Shown: in pieces, positions 2,937 to 63,221 of the stretch
Layout of the letters: the number at the start of each line of letters is the position of its first letter
Numbering within the stretch: position 1 is the first letter of the stretch
Source of the DNA: Patescibacteria group bacterium
Lineage (GTDB): Bacteria > Patescibacteriota > Patescibacteriia > JACRDY01
Length of the DNA: 64,000 nucleotides
Assembly: GCA_041650515.1 (NCBI GenBank)
Contig: JBAZLA010000001.1
Span: 146,710 to 210,709 of the forward strand
Direction: 5' to 3'
The notes under the pieces: generated by a model
Databases searched by the model: none
What the model saw: only the letters and a program-made list of their open reading frames with translations
Told to the model about the DNA's origin: nothing
Program-made: the position numbers and the translations under genes

Positions 2937-4586
<1,650 letters not shown>

Positions 4587-5157
4587 TTAAATACTGATAA
4601 GTTGTCCGTACACTAACAACACCAGTTGCTAATGTTTACCCCGTAGAGTCTACGGGTTTAACTCTCTCAGTAGAGTTATAAGAGAAAATAAAGTTGAATA
4701 GATAGGTTACTTCGCACTTACGATTTACTATCACTTTTCGATTGTCAATGTTCCTTTTCTCACCTCTTAATTTTTTATCAAATTAAGAGACGAAAAAACA
4801 GTGCGGGCCAAATCAACGACTTCCACTGGGGAATGTCTACTCAGCCATCACTGTTTTTCCGTCTACTTTTCCCCTGTCAGGGGAAAGTTTAGATGAATTG
4901 TAATAATGTTTTTATGGAACTTTTTATGCCTTGCCTCGCCGGTGCCCTAAAAGGGCATAGGCGGGTTATTTTTAAAGCCCTCTCATTATATACCTTTGCT
5001 AGACCCTGTCAAGGGTGAGACAACAAGCCAATAATGCACAAATTATACCCAGTCAATTTATAACCTAAATAGTAAAATAACCATTGTCCAAACCCTTGAC
5101 TAAATTGATTGTCCGTGTTACAGTTACTAATCCATTTCTCACACCAAGGAGGGCACT

Positions 5158-6999: not shown

Positions 7000-7154
7000 A
7001 CGCTATAGTACTTAATACATAGTACACAGTACAGAGTAAATTGACCAGCCAGCAACATTTGGCTGATGTACTCTGTACTCAGTACTGTGTACTATTATAA
7101 AACAAAAACCGTCGGTTTGTCACCAACGGTCTTCGTTTTATTCAATGAACAATT

Positions 7155-40938: not shown

Positions 40939-40984
40939 ATACATTAATTATTAATTACTAATTAATAATTGGTAACTGTTGTAA

Positions 40985-41264
40985 TCGCCCTCAGTAGGAA
41001 TCCCACCCCTACGGGTGGTGGCCCGTTAGGGCCAGAACCTACAAGAGAACAGTTGCTCTACTACTGGTTTCCAATATTCGCCCTCAGTAGGAATCCCACC
41101 CCTACGGGTGGTGGCCCGTTAGGGCCAGAACCTACAAGAGAACAGTTGCTCTACTACTGGTTTCCAATATTCGCCCTCAGTAGGAATCCCACCCCTACGG
41201 GTGGTGGCCCGTTAGGGCCAGAACCTACAAGAGAACAGTTGCTCTACTACTGGTTTCCAATATT
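40985..41264. repeat. Three tandem 93-bp units, each ending (tRNA orientation) in the 17-nt tRNA-Arg 3' terminus and containing a tRNA-3'-half-like segment with 32-nt double-hairpin insertion
   Basis: The units begin at 40985, 41079 and 41172 and are essentially identical. The next copy at 41265 is the genuine tRNA-Arg. The ORF-track 113-aa frame 40969..41310 is a repeat artefact. Confidence 0.8.
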
Positions 41265-41336
41265 CGCCCTCAGTAGGAATCGAACCTACATATCCAGCTT
41301 AGAAGGCTAGTGTTCTATCCATTGAACTATGAGGGC
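41265..41336 (-). tRNA. tRNA-Arg (anticodon TCT)
   Basis: The reverse complement GCCCTCATAGTTCAATGGATAGAACACTAGCCTTCTAAGCTGGATATGTAGGTTCGATTCCTACTGAGGGCG is a 72-nt cloverleaf. Confidence 0.8.
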
Positions 41337-41389: not shown

Positions 41390-42448
41390 CTAACTCTTTT
41401 TCCGCTGGCGACCATGAAAAGCCTTATAGACCTCACGCAAATGTTTATCGGTAATATGAGTATAAATTTGGGTTGTGGTGATGGAAGCATGGCCCAATAA
41501 CGACTGCACCGAACGGATATCAGCACCAGAAGTTAATAAATCAGTGGCAAAACTATGACGCAAAGTGTGCGGCGTAATCTTTTTGGTGATGCCGGCCAGC
41601 CGAGCGTACTTTTTGATCAATCGTTGCACTGACCGCGGCGTCAAAAAACTCACCTCCTCTACTCCTCTGGACTCTGGACTCGGGACTCGGGACTTATTTG
41701 CCCGATCATGACTAACAAAAATATAATCCGAACCATCCCGTCGAGTCGCCAAATAGCGTCGTAACCAAAATTTAGCTTGGTTAGAAATAAAAACCACTCG
41801 CGGTTTGTCACCCTTGCCCCGGACGGTAAATTCTTCTTTAGCTAGATTAATCTGATCTTTTTGAAGATGGACTAATTCTGAGACGCGCAGACCAGTCGAA
41901 AACAACATTTCTAATATGGCTTTGTCGCGGAGCGGAATAATATTGGCAATATAATCATTACCATCTTGATCAATCTCAACTTTATTAATCTGTAACGGCG
42001 CAGCTAAAAACCGTTCTAGATCGCTGCCTTCTAAATATTCAATGTGCCGTTCGGACTGCCTCGCTAGCTCAATTTTTTCTGGTGCCAAAGACCTAATATC
42101 GTTTTTGGCTAAATATTTAAGAAAAGAGCGCAAAGCAATCAGATGATAGTTCTGAGTGCTACTCTTGAGATTTTTACCATGATCATCAGTAGCTCGATTG
42201 AGCCAAAGCCGAAACTGACGGATCAGGCTCGAGTCGACATCTTCAATCTTAAAACTTTTGTTTTTACTTTTAGCCCAATTAAAAAACCGCTGTAAATAAA
42301 AATCATAATTACGAATCGTAGCTTGCGCTCGACCACGTTCGATCTCGAGATATTCGAGAAAATTAGTGACTAGGGGATTAGCTGACATAATTAAGAAAGC
42401 AAAAAAGCATACGGCCTCTCCGCCGAATCGGCGGATTGGCCTAAGCAA
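41390..42448 (-). CDS. Tyrosine site-specific recombinase/integrase (XerC/D-like)
   Basis: 352 aa with an N-terminal SAM-like domain. The catalytic C-terminus reads HTLRHSFATDLLTSGADIRSVQSLLGHASITTTQIYTHI (R...HxxR...Y). It is adjacent to tRNA-Arg. Confidence 0.8.
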   Translation of the reverse strand: MLRPIRRFGGEAVCFFAFLIMSANPLVTNFLEYLEIERGRAQATIRNYDFYLQRFFNWAKSKNKSFKIEDVDSSLIRQFRLWLNRATDDHGKNLKSSTQNYHLIALRSFLKYLAKNDIRSLAPEKIELARQSERHIEYLEGSDLERFLAAPLQINKVEIDQDGNDYIANIIPLRDKAILEMLFSTGLRVSELVHLQKDQINLAKEEFTVRGKGDKPRVVFISNQAKFWLRRYLATRRDGSDYIFVSHDRANKSRVPSPESRGVEEVSFLTPRSVQRLIKKYARLAGITKKITPHTLRHSFATDLLTSGADIRSVQSLLGHASITTTQIYTHITDKHLREVYKAFHGRQRKKS

Positions 42449-47615: not shown

Positions 47616-47702
47616 ATCTGTGTACTATGTACTAGGTACTAGGTACTAACATTATAAAAAAAGCCACCCGTAGGTGACTAGCTGCTGTAGGCAAGACTTT
47701 AC

Positions 47703-50740: not shown

Positions 50741-50924
50741 AGTACATAGTACTCAGCACCCAGTACACAGAAAAATATTAATCTAATAGCCTAACTAGTT
50801 AATTTACTTCCTAAAGTACTGGGTACTAGGTACTGGGTACTAGTTAATAATTGACAAAACCAATAAATTTGAGATAATGGGACAAACATTATCGAGGAGG
50901 GCTTTTTATTTAGGAATAATTGCT

Positions 50925-52107: not shown

Positions 52108-53643
52108 ATGACAATCAAAAAAACTATGATAACTACCATCAAAACCTGCGCGGTAATCGGCCTAAACTGCGAACCAGTGGAAGTGGAAGTCGATCTCAAT
52201 CGAGGCCAATCGTTTTTTGGGATCATCGGCCTGCCGGATAAATCAATCCAGGAAGCGACTGACCGCCTGCGTTCGGCGCTAAAAAACTCGGGTATTCCTT
52301 TCCCATCAAACAAAAGATTGATTATTAACTTGGCGCCGGCTGATGTGCGCAAAGAAGGCCCGGCCTACGATCTGCCAATGGCTGTGGGGATTATCCTGAG
52401 CGTCTTAGAATTAAAACCCGATTTAACTAACCATTTATTCATCGGCGAACTGGCACTGGAGGGTAATCTCCGGCCAACCCATGGTATTTTACCAATTGCT
52501 ATTTATGCCAAGGAACGAGGGATAAAAACACTTTGTCTACCCAAAGCTAATATAGCTGAAGCTAGCCTAATTCCCGGTCTGGAGCTTATCCCGCTTGATA
52601 ACTTGAATCAACTAATTGCCCACCTGCGCAATGAAAAAAATATCAAGCCGATCCAATCACCTGGCCTAGTTACTACCGACACGATCAACAACCTAACTTT
52701 AGATTTATCCTTAGTTAAAGGTCAACAACAAGCAAAGCGCGCGCTAGAAATCGCTGCCGCTGGCGGCCACAATATCCTGATGACTGGACCACCAGGCGCC
52801 GGTAAAACATTATTAGCTAAAACTCTGCCCTCGATCCTGCCACCGCTAACTACTGAGGAGATTCTCGAGGTGACCAAAATTTACAGTGTCGCTGGATTAT
52901 TACCAACTGACCAACCAATCATTACCGAGCGACCGTTCCGTTCACCACATCATTCCAGTTCTGGCGCGGCTTTAGTTGGCGGTGGCAAAAATCCCCGACC
53001 TGGCGAAATCTCACTGGCTCACCGCGGAATTTTGTTTCTGGACGAGTTCCCTGAATTTAACCGCCAAGTTATTGAAAACCTCCGCCAACCACTCGAGGAT
53101 GGCGTGGTGACTATTTGCCGCGCCGCCGGTAGCTTGGCTTTTCCGGCACGATTTACTCTAGTCGCCTCACAGAATCCTTGCCCCTGCGGTTTTGCGACTG
53201 ATCCGCACAAACCTTGCATTTGTACTCCCAGCCAAATTAACAACTATCGCCGTAAAATCTCCGGCCCAATCCTTGATCGGATTGACCTTCATCTAGAAGT
53301 ACCGCGCCTAGAGTTTGATAAATTAACCAGTGACAACCCCACGGACGAATCAAGCACTATCCGGTCCGCGGTGAGCCAAGCCCGACAAATCCAACACCGA
53401 CGCTTTGCTGGTTCAAAGATCATCACTAATGCCGAGATGGGCCCTAAAGAAATCAAAAAATTTTGTCAGGTCGATAATGCCGGTTTTGATCTTATCAAAA
53501 ACGCCGTTAACCAACTCCACCTCTCGGCCCGCGCCTATCATCGAATATTAAAAGTTGCCAGAACGATTGCCGATCTAGCAACTGAAGAAAAAATCAAAGT
53601 CGAATATCTAGCCGAAGCGCTACAATACAGAATTAAAAGTTAA
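52108..53643 (+). CDS. comM: YifB/ComM-family Mg-chelatase-like AAA+ ATPase
   Basis: 511 aa with Walker A ILMTGPPGAGKTLLAK, Walker B LFLDEF, a zinc-finger CPCG...C.C and a C-terminal helical domain. Confidence 0.85.
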   Translation: MTIKKTMITTIKTCAVIGLNCEPVEVEVDLNRGQSFFGIIGLPDKSIQEATDRLRSALKNSGIPFPSNKRLIINLAPADVRKEGPAYDLPMAVGIILSVLELKPDLTNHLFIGELALEGNLRPTHGILPIAIYAKERGIKTLCLPKANIAEASLIPGLELIPLDNLNQLIAHLRNEKNIKPIQSPGLVTTDTINNLTLDLSLVKGQQQAKRALEIAAAGGHNILMTGPPGAGKTLLAKTLPSILPPLTTEEILEVTKIYSVAGLLPTDQPIITERPFRSPHHSSSGAALVGGGKNPRPGEISLAHRGILFLDEFPEFNRQVIENLRQPLEDGVVTICRAAGSLAFPARFTLVASQNPCPCGFATDPHKPCICTPSQINNYRRKISGPILDRIDLHLEVPRLEFDKLTSDNPTDESSTIRSAVSQARQIQHRRFAGSKIITNAEMGPKEIKKFCQVDNAGFDLIKNAVNQLHLSARAYHRILKVARTIADLATEEKIKVEYLAEALQYRIKS

Positions 53644-53680
53644 TTACAAATTACGAATTACAAATTATCAATTTAAGACT

Positions 53681-54043
53681 ATGAAGGAAAATATTATCCA
53701 ACAAAAAAGCTACGTCTTTGCCTTGAGGATTATTAAATTATATGGATTCTTAGTTGAAAAACAGAGAGAGTTTGTTCTATCAAAACAAATTTTAAGATGC
53801 GGCACGTCGGTTGAAGCTAATATTGAGGAAGCAATTGGCGGTCAATCTAAAAAAGATTTCATTTTTAAAGTATCTATTGCTTATAAAGAAGCCAGGGAAA
53901 CTCATTATTGGATCAGACTTTTATATGATTCCGGTTTTTTGATTAAAAAACAATTCGGGTCGTTAATAGCAGACTGCGAAGTGTTAACTAAAATCACTGG
54001 TCGAATCCAAAAAACGTCTAAAGCTAAAGATTTTAATTCTTAA
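53681..54043 (+). CDS. Four-helix-bundle protein ('23S rRNA intervening-sequence protein' family, PF05635-like)
   Basis: 120 aa. The pattern SYVFALRIIKLY...LRCGTSVEANIEEA...SKKDFIFKVSIAYKEARETHYWIRLL is typical of the family. It is flanked by inverted CGAATTAC-type repeats. Confidence 0.7.
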   Translation: MKENIIQQKSYVFALRIIKLYGFLVEKQREFVLSKQILRCGTSVEANIEEAIGGQSKKDFIFKVSIAYKEARETHYWIRLLYDSGFLIKKQFGSLIADCEVLTKITGRIQKTSKAKDFNS

Positions 54044-54064
54044 TTCGTAATCTGCAATTCGTAA

Positions 54065-55363
54065 TTATTTAATGTAGCTGAGGGGATTAACGGTTTTACC
54101 ATTAATCCGGACCTCGAAATGCAGATGGGTGCCAGTTGAGTGGCCAGTGGTACCCATCATACCAATTGTTTGACCGCGCGTGACAGTGTCACCTAATTTA
54201 ACAAAAAGCTTGCTCATATGAGCATATAAGGTAGACAAACCACCACCGTGGTCAATTGCCAAAACATTACCATATCCATTATTCCAACCACCCCAACCAT
54301 ATCGGCTAATAGTCCCAGATTCAGCAGCATAAATGGGTGACGAATAATCACCATCAATATCCAAACCGCCATGTTTCCAGCCAAAATATTGAGTAATACG
54401 ACGTCCAGAGGTCGGCCATTGCAACTGAGTCGAGCTAGGAGTAGCTGAGGCTGGAGCCGATCCAACATAACTCCTAACCACCGGCTTGGGCGTTGGCGCA
54501 TAAACCGGTAATTTTTTGCCGCCGGGAATAATTAGCTCTTGGCCAATACTCAATGAGCTATTAACATCAAGGTCATTAGCAATCATAACTTGAGCAACCT
54601 CAATACCATAGAGCTGAGCTATCTTATTAATATTCTCACCGCGAACGACTTTATGTTTAATGCCAGAAACCGGCAGGATCGTCAGTTTATCGCCCGGCCG
54701 AATATAGCTCCTTTCAGTTAGCTTATTCTCCCACAGAACCGTATTGACTGAGATACCAAACTTCTCGGCGATCGAACCAATTGTGTCGCCCTGTTGTACT
54801 GTATAAGTTTCGCTCGCTGCTCTAGCCGGACCAGCCGTCTCGTTACCCGGAGAAATTTCTGGTTTAATCAGCGCCGTGCCGCCTTGAGTGGTGGCGGTAA
54901 TATCCTGAATTTCACCCTGGTTAGAAAATTTAGGTGTATTGGACGTAACCCCAGATTCATAGCCCAAATAACTAGAAATGTTTGAACCGGCCGGAGAATT
55001 ATCAATACTTTCTTCAACCAAGCCTAGTTCCTGGCCGCCGACTAACTGATAAAGAATTGTTTTTTTACCAAACTCCTCGTCGCGAAAACCATGCCAGCGC
55101 GCTTGAAGATTATTAGTAACCACCAAAAGACCCAATATCAAAATAATGCCATGGATAACATACCGATTGGTAATAATATCCCAAAGTTTATTACCTGAAG
55201 GGATATAAATTTTAAGTAATTGCCTCTTAAAAAACAGATAACCCTTATAGATCGGCAAAATCCCGAAGCCAAAAAGAAAACCACCAACAGCCTTTAGTGG
55301 TCTTTTAATCTTTGGCCAAAACCGGCCACCAAGAAAACCTATTCCCGTCTTCATCTTTACCAA
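54065..55363 (-). CDS. M23-family peptidoglycan endopeptidase with two LysM domains
   Basis: 432 aa. The LysM domains begin YTVQQGDTIGSIAEKFGIS and HKVVRGENINKIAQLYGIE. The M23 domain carries HxxxD...HLHFE. Confidence 0.8.
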   Translation of the reverse strand: MVKMKTGIGFLGGRFWPKIKRPLKAVGGFLFGFGILPIYKGYLFFKRQLLKIYIPSGNKLWDIITNRYVIHGIILILGLLVVTNNLQARWHGFRDEEFGKKTILYQLVGGQELGLVEESIDNSPAGSNISSYLGYESGVTSNTPKFSNQGEIQDITATTQGGTALIKPEISPGNETAGPARAASETYTVQQGDTIGSIAEKFGISVNTVLWENKLTERSYIRPGDKLTILPVSGIKHKVVRGENINKIAQLYGIEVAQVMIANDLDVNSSLSIGQELIIPGGKKLPVYAPTPKPVVRSYVGSAPASATPSSTQLQWPTSGRRITQYFGWKHGGLDIDGDYSSPIYAAESGTISRYGWGGWNNGYGNVLAIDHGGGLSTLYAHMSKLFVKLGDTVTRGQTIGMMGTTGHSTGTHLHFEVRINGKTVNPLSYIK

Positions 55364-61169: not shown

Positions 61170-61673
61170 ATGTCTATCGCCATCATGTCTGATAGCCACG
61201 ACAATCTACCTAATATCAATGAAGCGCTTAAAATTATCAACCAAGCACAAATCCAAACCATTATCCATTGCGGTGATGTCTGTTCAGCCGAAGTAACCCG
61301 ATATATTAGCAAACATTTCACTGGCCAGATCCACCTAATTGCTGGTAATGTTGCTGGTGACCACGCCAAGAAAATTAAGCGCTATCGGTTAAAAAACGTC
61401 ACCTTCTATAATCAAACTGGCACTATAAAAATAGCTAACAAGACGATCGGATTTGCCCACCAGCCAGCTGAAGCTAAACAACTAGCGGCCACCGGCGGTT
61501 ATGATCTAGTCTTCTATGGCCATACCCACCGACCCTGGGAAGAAACCATTGGCCAAACACGTCTAGTCAACCCCGGCACCTTAGCTGGCCTTTTTGCTAG
61601 ACCAACCTTTGCCATTTATAACCCAACAACCAACCAACTTGAACTTAAAATTCTTTACACCAATAATTGTTAA
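61170..61673 (+). CDS. YfcE/MJ0936-family metallophosphoesterase
   Basis: 167 aa with the SDSHDN, GDVCS and GHTHRPW motifs. Confidence 0.7.
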   Translation: MSIAIMSDSHDNLPNINEALKIINQAQIQTIIHCGDVCSAEVTRYISKHFTGQIHLIAGNVAGDHAKKIKRYRLKNVTFYNQTGTIKIANKTIGFAHQPAEAKQLAATGGYDLVFYGHTHRPWEETIGQTRLVNPGTLAGLFARPTFAIYNPTTNQLELKILYTNNC

Positions 61674-61704
61674 TTCGTAATTCTTAACTCGTAATTATTG
61701 AACT

Positions 61705-62891: not shown

Positions 62892-62993
62892 CTACTACTA
62901 CGAATTTACAAATTTCTACGAATATACTAATACTACGAATTAATTGCTTTATTCGTATATTAGTAATGATTCGTAAATTCGTAGTTAATAAAT

Positions 62994-63221
62994 ATGATTT
63001 ACCGTATCAAAATCAAAGTTGTCACCAAGGCCAGCCGCGACCAGATTATCCACGAACCGGACGGCAGTTGGAAAGTCCGGGTAACAGTAGCGCCGACTCA
63101 AGGCAAAGCTAATGACCGGGTGATTGAGCTTATGGCTGACGAGTTTAAAACTGCCAAAAGCAACATCCAAATAATTCATGGACTCAGGAATAAAGAAAAA
63201 ATAGTTGAGATAATAATGTAA
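62994..63221 (+). CDS. DUF167/YggU-family small protein
   Basis: 75 aa, matching the ...KANDRVIELMADEFK...IQIIHG pattern. Confidence 0.5.
   Translation: MIYRIKIKVVTKASRDQIIHEPDGSWKVRVTVAPTQGKANDRVIELMADEFKTAKSNIQIIHGLRNKEKIVEIIM

Follow-up and report, generated by a model that had tools for sequence, protein, structure and literature searches.

A four-helix-bundle gene enclosed by inverted heptamer arrays downstream of comM in a Patescibacteria genome, a probable free-standing counterpart of rRNA intervening sequences

Within a 64,000-nucleotide stretch of the genome of a Patescibacteria group bacterium (positions 146,710 to 210,709 of contig JBAZLA010000001.1; hereafter the window), a gene for a small four-helix-bundle (4HB) protein lies directly 3' of comM and is enclosed by inverted arrays of tandem heptamers. 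We propose, with moderate confidence, that gene and arrays together form a free-standing, promoterless passenger cassette of the intervening sequence (IVS) type, which is transcribed by read-through from its host gene and excised from the transcript at the stem formed by the two arrays. Comparison with homologous loci indicates that a single architecture is common to nearly all of the copies examined, with inverted arrays, co-orientation with the upstream gene, and both protein and repeats under purifying selection, and this shared architecture ties free-standing 4HB genes to the classical IVSs of rRNA genes.

The open reading frame (ORF) at the center of the cassette encodes 120 amino acids. 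An earlier note on this DNA, made from the sequence alone, had placed it in the '23S IVS protein' family, and the assignment is borne out by the PF05635 hidden Markov model (92.5 bits, cut-off 33.8, E = 2.3e-26) as well as by TIGR02436, 'four helix bundle protein' (104.8 bits, cut-off 24, E = 2.6e-30). PF05635 is the sole Pfam match of the protein, which thus carries no recognizable Y1 (HUH) transposase domain. Its closest solved structure is 2RLD (Bacteroides thetaiotaomicron BT_0352; E = 1.5e-30; 5 chains), and the profile of its subfamily also finds 2GSC (Xanthomonas XCC0516), which was likewise crystallised with 5 chains and according to the literature is a toroid of five subunits (PMC4990558). 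The isoelectric point of 9.6 (about 9.3-9.7; subfamily median 9.3) marks it as a basic protein, and residues R39, S43, N47 and E50 of the RxxxSxxxNxxE helix-face motif, which the literature gives as GxxRxxxSxxxNxxE (PMC3936711), are invariant or nearly so in the subfamily alignment. Exactly the same 120-residue protein is encoded on a 472-kb contig of a Patescibacteria (candidate phyla radiation, CPR) metagenome-assembled genome (MAG) and in a second sample, whose copy has the same DNA sequence at every position over 4.2 kb. As a query, the window protein matches more than 7,000 clusters. A defence or phage origin of the gene was rejected, as PADLOC and PHROGs models gave zero matches for the protein and only two phage records carry a distant homologue.

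The two arms of the cassette (Table 1) are each 36 nt long and 78% complementary, with a 26-nt core that reaches 85%, in keeping with the inverted repeats of ~20-30 bp that surround the ORF of an IVS. The flanking strings quoted in the earlier note are indeed present, at 53642-53667 and 54041-54067, and form part of these inverted repeats. The upstream array consists of AATTACA units with a period of 7 (3.7 copies according to Tandem Repeats Finder, TRF) and ends 4 nt 5' of the ATG, so that heptamers of the general form AATTACN stand directly before the start codon, as heptamers do in the IVS of Coxiella; the downstream array consists of TAATTCG units (4.7 copies, TRF), in general form NGTAATT. 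Arms and coding sequences are closely interlocked. The upstream arm opens with the stop codon of comM (TAA, 53641-53643), the end codons of the 4HB ORF (AAT TCT TAA) fall within the downstream array, and the downstream arm closes with the stop codon (TTA on the plus strand, 54065-54067) of the M23 peptidase gene, which converges on the cassette. The cassette, 427 nt long (53641-54067), therefore occupies the intergenic space between comM and the M23 gene exactly, with a gap of 37 nt between comM and the 4HB gene that the earlier note had correctly put next to it.

When the 54 window ORFs of at least 100 amino acids were ranked by the inverted match between their flanks, the 4HB gene came first with a score of 16, the next one reaching 12. 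The minimum free energy (MFE) and centroid folds of 53630-54080 both pair the upstream with the downstream array. The exact 8-mer CGAATTAC, which the earlier note had taken as the repeat motif, was dropped, and the heptamer-array description was adopted in its place: the 8-mer is found once at the locus and three times in the window, where 2.3 occurrences are expected, and its reverse complement was not found on the downstream side of the 4HB gene. The core shared by the arms, ATTACGAATT, has 17 matches with at most one mismatch in the window against 7.9 expected, a number that none of 100 shuffles reached.

The same architecture recurs in distant bacteria. Our main comparative set comprised 80 loci from species-representative genomes, with homologues 56-69% identical to the window protein that belong to one 4HB subfamily, to which the main statistics refer; 10 more distant 4HB genes were considered in addition. 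Arms were matched without gaps and neighbouring ORFs were called crudely. About 15 phyla are covered, including Bacteroidota, Ignavibacteria, Chlorobiota, Verrucomicrobiota, Planctomycetota, Desulfobacterota, Pseudomonadota, Cyanobacteria, Nitrospirota, Gemmatimonadota, Lentisphaerae, KSB1 and CPR. At nearly all 80 loci, AATTAnn arrays stand just 5' of the ATG and their reverse complement begins within the stop codon or just past it. Inverted arms scoring 12 or more were found in 68/78 loci, against a background mean of 8.1, and are ~4-5 units long (median 27.5 nt, ~4 units). In the 150 nt next to the ORF ends, the density of period-7 arrays is 30 times that of the rest of the flanks (5.36 vs 0.17 per kb; 84 loci). 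The unit logo of the subfamily reads A-A-T-T-A-[C>G>A>T]-[G>T,A], and many homologues end in '...(I)RNS*', encoded by ATT CGT AAT TCN TAA, which is the array sequence itself.

Within a locus, the two arms match each other better than arms taken from different loci do (p = 6.5e-7), and their duplex energies differ in the same sense (-41 vs -33 kcal/mol, p = 4e-6); in many loci the order of unit variants is mirrored perfectly (36/36, 37/37, 32/32, 31/31). One such case comes from another Patescibacteria genome (L003), in which a 75%-identical homologue occupies an unrelated locus, between Mur ligase and tRNA-Glu genes, with AATTACG-type heptamers on both sides that match at 36/36 positions. Beyond the subfamily, an unbiased profile scan of 976 kb of CPR comM loci showed that 8/8 distinct 4HB genes are flanked by inverted arrays of 7-8-nt units.

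The position of the cassette relative to its neighbours is equally regular. The upstream neighbour ORF lies on the same strand as the 4HB gene in all 77 callable loci, whereas the downstream neighbour is co-oriented in 55/77, an internal baseline of 71% that gives 0.71^77, or about 5e-12, for the upstream result. The distance from the upstream stop codon to the 4HB ATG has a median of 47 nt, which is approximately the length of the array. Six cassettes lie within ~60 nt of a same-strand tRNA gene. A promoter and terminator scan of the window gave no such site between comM and the 4HB gene or after the 4HB gene. Given the co-orientation, the short upstream gap and the lack of a promoter or terminator at its borders, the cassette appears to be promoterless and to depend on read-through transcription. 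Previous studies have found 4HB genes as passengers within cas operons (PMC3936711) and in insertions of CPR 16S and 23S rRNA genes (PMC11270868).

Both components of the cassette carry signs of selection. Judging from its substitution pattern, the 4HB protein is under strong purifying selection, with a median ratio of nonsynonymous to synonymous substitution rates (dN/dS) of 0.09 over 109 pairs and 30 invariant alignment columns. At orthologous Flavobacterium sites, where dS is about 1-1.5 (saturated) and the expected neutral identity is 0.34-0.46, the arms are still 82-97% identical; since synonymous sites are saturated there, the arrays are constrained in sequence, beyond their ability to pair.

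The explanation that we favour begins with a cassette situated directly 3' of a co-oriented host gene, here comM, from which it would be transcribed by read-through, as its anatomy and the co-orientation in the callable loci suggest. In the transcript, base pairing between the two arrays is predicted to give a duplex of ~26-36 bp, which closes around the ORF shortly 5' of its ATG and shortly 3' of its stop codon. RNase III would then cleave this duplex and free the cassette RNA from the host RNA, by analogy with the homologous elements of Coxiella and Leptospira rRNA, and cleavage would leave an AU-rich leader from which translation could proceed without a Shine-Dalgarno sequence. Because it would excise itself at the RNA level, such a cassette could be tolerated at low cost to the host in rRNA, in tRNA leaders and between the genes of operons. 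A rationale for the heptamers based on stop codons in all three frames was also tried and dropped: AATT- and CTAG-type arrays supply a TAA per unit, but the rule fails for other subfamilies, as at the CPR loci L158 and L170.

Several observations weigh against this explanation, either for the window copy or in general. The fold of the whole cassette is unexceptional (z -1.54), and the window arms are among the weaker ones, with 22/26 matches. The upstream neighbour is divergent at two loci outside the 77-locus count, L005 and L176, the latter on a Euhalothece plasmid. In Coxiella, the corresponding protein S23p is not detectably made. In addition, the mismatches between arms show no strand asymmetry, 37 being compatible with G:U pairing in the sense RNA and 41 being would-be A:C pairs, and duplex energies are equal for the sense and antisense strands. 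The lack of a G:U preference weighs against selection on the RNA only, because selection for a stem at the RNA level should favour G:U pairs. Finally, the AATTA core is invariant across phyla while positions 6-7 vary, which pairing alone does not explain.

The G:U and A:C symmetry and the conservation of AATTA beyond what pairing requires argue that read-through and RNase III cleavage are not the whole story, and the comparison of arms points to an additional, sequence-specific and strand-symmetric constraint on the arrays. One possibility is that this constraint reflects a role at the DNA level, with the arrays as terminal repeats or recombination substrates, or else recognition by a cassette-borne factor, which would be the 4HB protein because it is the only factor that travels with the cassette.

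In the first of these cases, the arrays would act as DNA: a non-autonomous cassette would have them as its terminal inverted repeats and would be mobilised by an enzyme acting in trans, or through recombination of one array with another of the same unit; solo arrays and hairpins would be landing pads, and the RNA stem a by-product. We consider this possible but not probable; it is compatible with the IVS-type explanation. The strand symmetry of arm mismatches and the perfectly mirrored order of unit variants speak in its favour, as does the abundance, near cassettes, of arrays and hairpins that share the unit and lack the gene, and it is further supported by the occupancy of individual sites.

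Site occupancy was followed in 80 metagenomic loci whose ComM proteins are 51-60% identical to that of the window, and in the closest ComM relatives from a larger protein collection (66-70% identity, best 70%). At least 12 relatives retain the gene order dksA-lspA-comM-M23(-HPPase), with the M23 gene abutting comM across a gap of 40-110 nt that holds a bidirectional terminator hairpin and no 4HB gene, which indicates that the lineage of the window acquired the cassette between these two genes. In the closest relatives other junctions are occupied: a 4HB cassette lies between lspA and comM in L170, cassettes of two subfamilies with different units lie on either side of comM in L171, and L173 has none at comM and one beside the trigger factor gene. 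Other 4HB subfamilies stand directly 3' of comM in L132 and L158. The window itself holds no second 4HB gene or pseudogene, including in the 372-nt gap between lspA and comM that is the cassette site in L170 and L171. Five of the eight distinct 4HB genes in the 976 kb of comM-centered CPR loci directly adjoin comM, on either side; this recurrence could reflect a preferred site or a sampling effect.

The same variability is seen in near-identical Nostoc plasmids. Here the cassette is lacking from xisH-xisI regions of 98.7% and 94.6% identity, and the cassette-free alleles carry ~200 nt of unrelated DNA in its place. Even at 90% identity, two Nostoc cassettes have arrays of unequal copy number (4.5 vs at least 9 units). 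These cases show that the cassette has repeatedly been gained and lost as a unit, with slippage inside the arrays. On two of the Nostoc plasmids (L175 and L179), the cassette adjoins xisH/xisI excision-factor genes and a Tn7-like tnsA-tnsB module, and in L179 it stands in place of xisH.

Other results sit poorly with a role of the arrays as DNA. The gene tables of the examined loci show no transposase or recombinase that is consistently adjacent, no direct repeat brackets the window arms in a repeat search at the locus, and neither a target-site duplication nor a clean empty site was recovered among CPR ComM relatives, which are at most 70% identical, or in the Nostoc plasmids, where unrelated DNA fills the site. 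Strict upstream co-orientation would moreover be needless for a purely DNA-level element. The small mobile cassette suggested in the earlier note thus stands insofar as gene and repeats behave as a unit, at L003 and at most of the 80 loci, and no mechanism of transposition was found for it. Repeats confined to this locus, together with flanks conserved in synteny, had been named there as the picture that would speak against a cassette; on the contrary, the repeats occur elsewhere, and relatives with comM-M23 synteny lack the 4HB gene.

The second case, in which the 4HB protein itself is the cognate factor, we judge to be rather unlikely. Here the basic homopentameric ring would recognise heptamer arrays, as DNA or RNA, in a manner reminiscent of repetitive extragenic palindromic (REP) elements and their associated tyrosine transposases (RAYT), its gene would lie between inverted copies of the very repeat that the protein maintains or spreads, and solo arrays, hairpins and gene-less rRNA insertions would be the non-autonomous progeny of the protein. 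What recommends it is that the unit type tracks the protein subfamily and not the host. AATTAnn units go with this subfamily in ~15 phyla, whereas distant subfamilies have their own units even within one genome, such as L171, where AATTTGT-type and GCGATAG-type units accompany the two subfamilies. Each of the eight CPR 4HB genes comes with its own unit (AATTTTC, GTAAGCN, TAGTGGN/TAGCAGC, ATGTTAT/GTGTTCT and GCGATAG among others), as do the plasmid cassettes of cyanobacteria (AAGTCGG in Nostoc punctiforme; TCACTGG, 12 copies, in Euhalothece). Unit class correlates with protein similarity to an extent reached in 0/2000 permutations. A unit core conserved beyond the needs of pairing, a basic protein with pentameric homologues and arms ~4-5 units long are consistent with such recognition.

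Gene-less arrays of the same unit also cluster around cassettes. Among the arrays in the 3-kb flanks of cassette loci, 46/82 are gene-less and made of the cassette's own unit, often as hairpins. An Opitutales MAG (L032, 1300-3730) carries eight CCTAATT/AATTAGG arrays within 2.5 kb around a tRNA-Ser gene and a cassette, with an ORF fragment at 2181-2399 that resembles a decayed 4HB N-terminus, and looks like a graveyard of decayed cassettes. On the Euhalothece natronophila plasmid pEu1 (L176, 1852-1950), the 12 TCACTGG units follow the 4HB gene and CCAGTGA-type units precede it; this unit resembles the TAACTGA repeats of Beggiatoaceae and some cyanobacteria.

Recognition by the protein is nevertheless not required by these data, as co-inheritance of gene and arrays alone predicts a correlation between unit and protein. 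The 4HB family has no known nuclease, recombinase or polymerase motif, and the window contains several arrays of other units (GTACTAG, CTCGGGA, AAATTCA) and one 4HB gene only. A bolder version, which we put forward as speculation, would make the pentamer a sequence-specific reader of heptamers, with approximately one subunit per unit, that forms together with the arrays a self-propagating repeat system analogous to REP/RAYT. Its progeny would be the gene-less heptamer hairpins and arrays that are dispersed over many bacterial genomes and, as part of the same conjecture, rRNA IVSs and the heptamer repeats of the cyanobacterial short tandemly repeated repetitive (STRR) and Beggiatoa TAACTGA types. 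If true, it would provide a single origin and a protein partner for a repeat class unexplained for decades.

It is very improbable, on the other hand, that the gene is an ordinary resident with chance simple sequence repeats (SSRs) in AT-rich flanks and no cassette at all, even though the genome has other period-7 arrays unrelated to a 4HB gene and heptamers are the commonest long SSR class in prokaryotes (review in PMC4679880). The 30-fold enrichment of arrays at ORF ends, the recurrence of the architecture at unrelated loci in many phyla, the first rank of the gene among window ORFs for inverted flanks and the syntenic relatives without the cassette all contradict it. The least credible reading, in which the gene would encode the accessory variability determinant (Avd) of a diversity-generating retroelement (DGR), draws on the relatedness of PF05635 to the bAvd family, on the PF22296 matches of some close homologues and on the abundance of DGRs in CPR genomes, and was rejected because none of the genes called in the 10 kb to the left and right has a reverse transcriptase domain, no template/variable repeat pair is seen at the locus, and the structure profile search returns 2RLD and 2GSC, not Avd. 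An integron gene cassette was discarded as well: both flanks are heptamer arrays, there is no adjacent IntI gene, and cassette loci are scattered singly.

AATT-type repeats are also found elsewhere in the window (Table 1). The pattern AATTN3AATTN3AATT, with at most one mismatch, has 13 matches in the window against 1.33 expected, a count reached in 0/100 shuffles, and these fall in the cassette arms, in the 16S rRNA gene, at 61665-61696 and at 40946-40977. Among short tandem repeats, a period of 7 predominates both in the window and in related loci. Of two further loci that the earlier note had called palindromic, the gene-less one at 62893-62995 is a real hairpin, located between an inositol monophosphatase gene and a DUF167-like gene, whereas the supposedly shorter palindrome at 61660-61700 turned out to be a one-sided tandem array of the downstream-arm type, which does not fold as a palindrome (-4.8 kcal/mol), overlaps the stop codon of a metallophosphoesterase gene and ends 8 nt before an MgtC-family gene. 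It is plausible that both derive from a cassette, since gene-less arrays of the same unit are common around cassettes and a decayed fragment is present in L032. The solo array beside tRNA-His and a heptamer hairpin inside the 16S rRNA gene are not mentioned in the earlier note.

This last element deserves attention in view of the proposed kinship with IVSs. The 16S rRNA gene (2937-4590, minus strand) is 1654 nt long according to Rfam, as an insert of 169 nt replaces a 5-nt helix-tip loop (Rfam small subunit, SSU, model positions about 1157-1161). The insert consists of inverted AAATTCA-type heptamer arrays (3325-3355 and 3410-3442) and a short structured loop, with a fold of -68.5 kcal/mol. 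Cassette and insert together mean that the same genome holds a gene-bearing element with heptamer arms outside rRNA and a gene-less one within rRNA. At the cassette itself Rfam found no rRNA, and no Rfam family covers the cassette or its arrays.

Table 1. Coordinates of the cassette, its host genes and other AATT-type or IVS-like elements in the window.
Feature	Position	Strand	Basis
comM/yifB (Mg-chelatase-like AAA ATPase), co-oriented upstream host gene	52108-53643	+	ORF list, Pfam domains
Upstream arm, tandem heptamers AATTACA AATTACG AATTACA AATTATC AATT	53641-53676	+	inverted repeat, TRF, fold
4HB protein gene	53681-54043	+	ORF list, PF05635/TIGR02436 profile matches
Downstream arm, TAATTCT TAATTCG TAATCTG CAATTCG TAATTA	54032-54067	+	inverted repeat, TRF
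LysM/M23 peptidase gene, convergent downstream host gene	54065-55363	-	ORF list, Pfam
Solo one-sided AATT-type array TAATTCG TAATTCT TAACTCG TAATTA	61664-61696	+	TRF, pattern search
Gene-less hairpin, ACGAATT/AATTCGT core, period 8-18 nt	62896-62985		fold -28.4 kcal/mol (MFE)
Solo AATT-type array AATTATT AATTACT AATTAAT AATTG, adjoins tRNA-His	40942-40977		TRF, pattern search
169-nt gene-less IVS at 16S rRNA helix tip	~3296-3464	-	Rfam SSU alignment

Additional repeats were seen in the window that do not involve AATT-type units. Close to the solo array at tRNA-His, three perfect tandem copies of a 93-nt sequence lie between tRNA-His and tRNA-Arg (40985-41281), each beginning with the 3'-terminal 17-18 nt of tRNA-Arg; this triplication may represent an att-like duplication or have arisen as an artefact of assembly. 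At 2442-2540, a 49-nt unit present twice (96% identity) repeats a stretch of tRNA-Phe (2392-2465). A gene-less hairpin of inverted GTACACA/GTACAGA heptamers (7009-7093, -39.1 kcal/mol) is found between two minus-strand genes, its 26-nt loop containing a small GC hairpin. Direct GTACTAG/GTACTGG arrays (47617-47650 and 50815-50846) surround ~3.2 kb with three hypothetical genes, and the second of them is directly 5' of a good promoter-like site for a dksA-like gene. A CTCTGGA/CTCGGGA array of 4.3 copies (41663-41696) falls within the listed ORF 41390-42448 (minus strand), and the true start of this ORF is therefore probably downstream of the array.

Part of this picture is already known, namely ORF-containing IVSs with terminal inverted repeats, the heptamers of Coxiella and the widely annotated free-standing 4HB genes. 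We did not find in the searchable literature the family-wide rule that almost all copies have inverted arrays of 7-8-nt units directly at their start and stop codons, nor the subfamily-specific units, the strict upstream co-orientation and the purifying selection on the repeats; heptamers beside 4HB genes are noted there only for Coxiella. PF05635/TIGR02436 proteins are very numerous and have been unexplained passengers of rRNA genes, cas operons and plasmids. A concrete model that can be put to the test is offered here for them, in which read-through transcription precedes excision by RNase III. The protein may also be the cognate partner of the heptamer repeats, which would bear on the old problem of heptamer abundance in bacterial intergenic DNA.

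Among known systems, the Avd proteins of DGRs resemble the window protein in being homologous, small, basic and pentameric four-helix bundles, and they act with nucleic acid and a polymerase; the window locus differs in having neither a reverse transcriptase nor a template/variable repeat pair, and its protein belongs to a different subfamily. The likeness to REP/RAYT systems is that inverted copies of a short repeat flank a gene and that further copies are scattered between genes, singly or as hairpins, here the AATT-type arrays at 40942-40977 and 61664-61696. The differences are a 120-residue four-helix bundle instead of a Y1 HUH transposase, and heptamer arrays instead of palindromes of ~35 nt. 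We know of no mobilising activity of 4HB proteins.

A third comparison concerns intergenic heptamer SSRs. The STRR sequences of cyanobacteria are intergenic tandem heptamers in direct arrays for which no associated gene has been described, and cyanobacterial 4HB genes sit between arrays of such a kind (AAGTCGG, or TCACTGG x12). Intergenic tandem heptamers, including TAACTGA of marine Beggiatoaceae, often end just before a start codon (PMC4679880), like the upstream arms of 4HB cassettes; unlike these arms, the Beggiatoaceae repeats are described as direct arrays without an associated gene, and the terms '23S', 'S23', 'intervening' and 'four helix' do not occur in that paper (PMC4679880).

The closest parallels are the IVSs of rRNA, to which the earlier note had rightly linked the gene; the link is stronger than was known then, given the architecture in Coxiella and the heptamer hairpin in the 16S rRNA gene. 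Short gene-less IVSs occur in the rRNA of Salmonella, Campylobacter and others, and insertions shorter than 200 bp without an ORF are known from CPR rRNA genes (PMC11270868). The 169-nt helix-tip hairpin of the window is of this kind, and its arms are inverted heptamer arrays built like those of 4HB cassettes, a connection that is absent from the literature examined. No cassette among the fetched loci lies inside rRNA, so the family-wide connection to rRNA rests on the Coxiella paper and on this gene-less 16S insert.

The 23S rRNA IVS of Coxiella burnetii is 428 nt long, encodes the PF05635 protein S23p, and has a 28-bp terminal stem that is cut by RNase III; 2-4 tandem GACAGAT heptamers, in strain-variable copy number, stand directly 5' of its ATG, and RNase III makes its 5' cut where the first heptamer begins (PMC4990558). 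The elements of Coxiella, Leptospira and Salmonella are the only ones for which RNase III excision without religation is documented (PMC4990558). ORF-containing 23S IVSs of Leptospira and Coxiella thus agree with the window cassette in protein family, in size (~428 nt) and in a stem of ~28 bp around the ORF, and that of Coxiella agrees also in the heptamers before the ATG, their variable copy number and the sense orientation in the host transcript. The heptamer unit differs (AATTACG in the window, GACAGAT in Coxiella), and the ORF family of the window is under strong purifying selection, whereas the Coxiella copy is decaying. Unlike rRNA IVSs, which occupy helix tips such as 23S helices 9, 25 or 45, the window cassette lies between two protein genes, comM and the M23 gene, and its relatives lie in tRNA leaders and operons. 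The window feature would work like an rRNA IVS, outside the rRNA location by which that class is defined.

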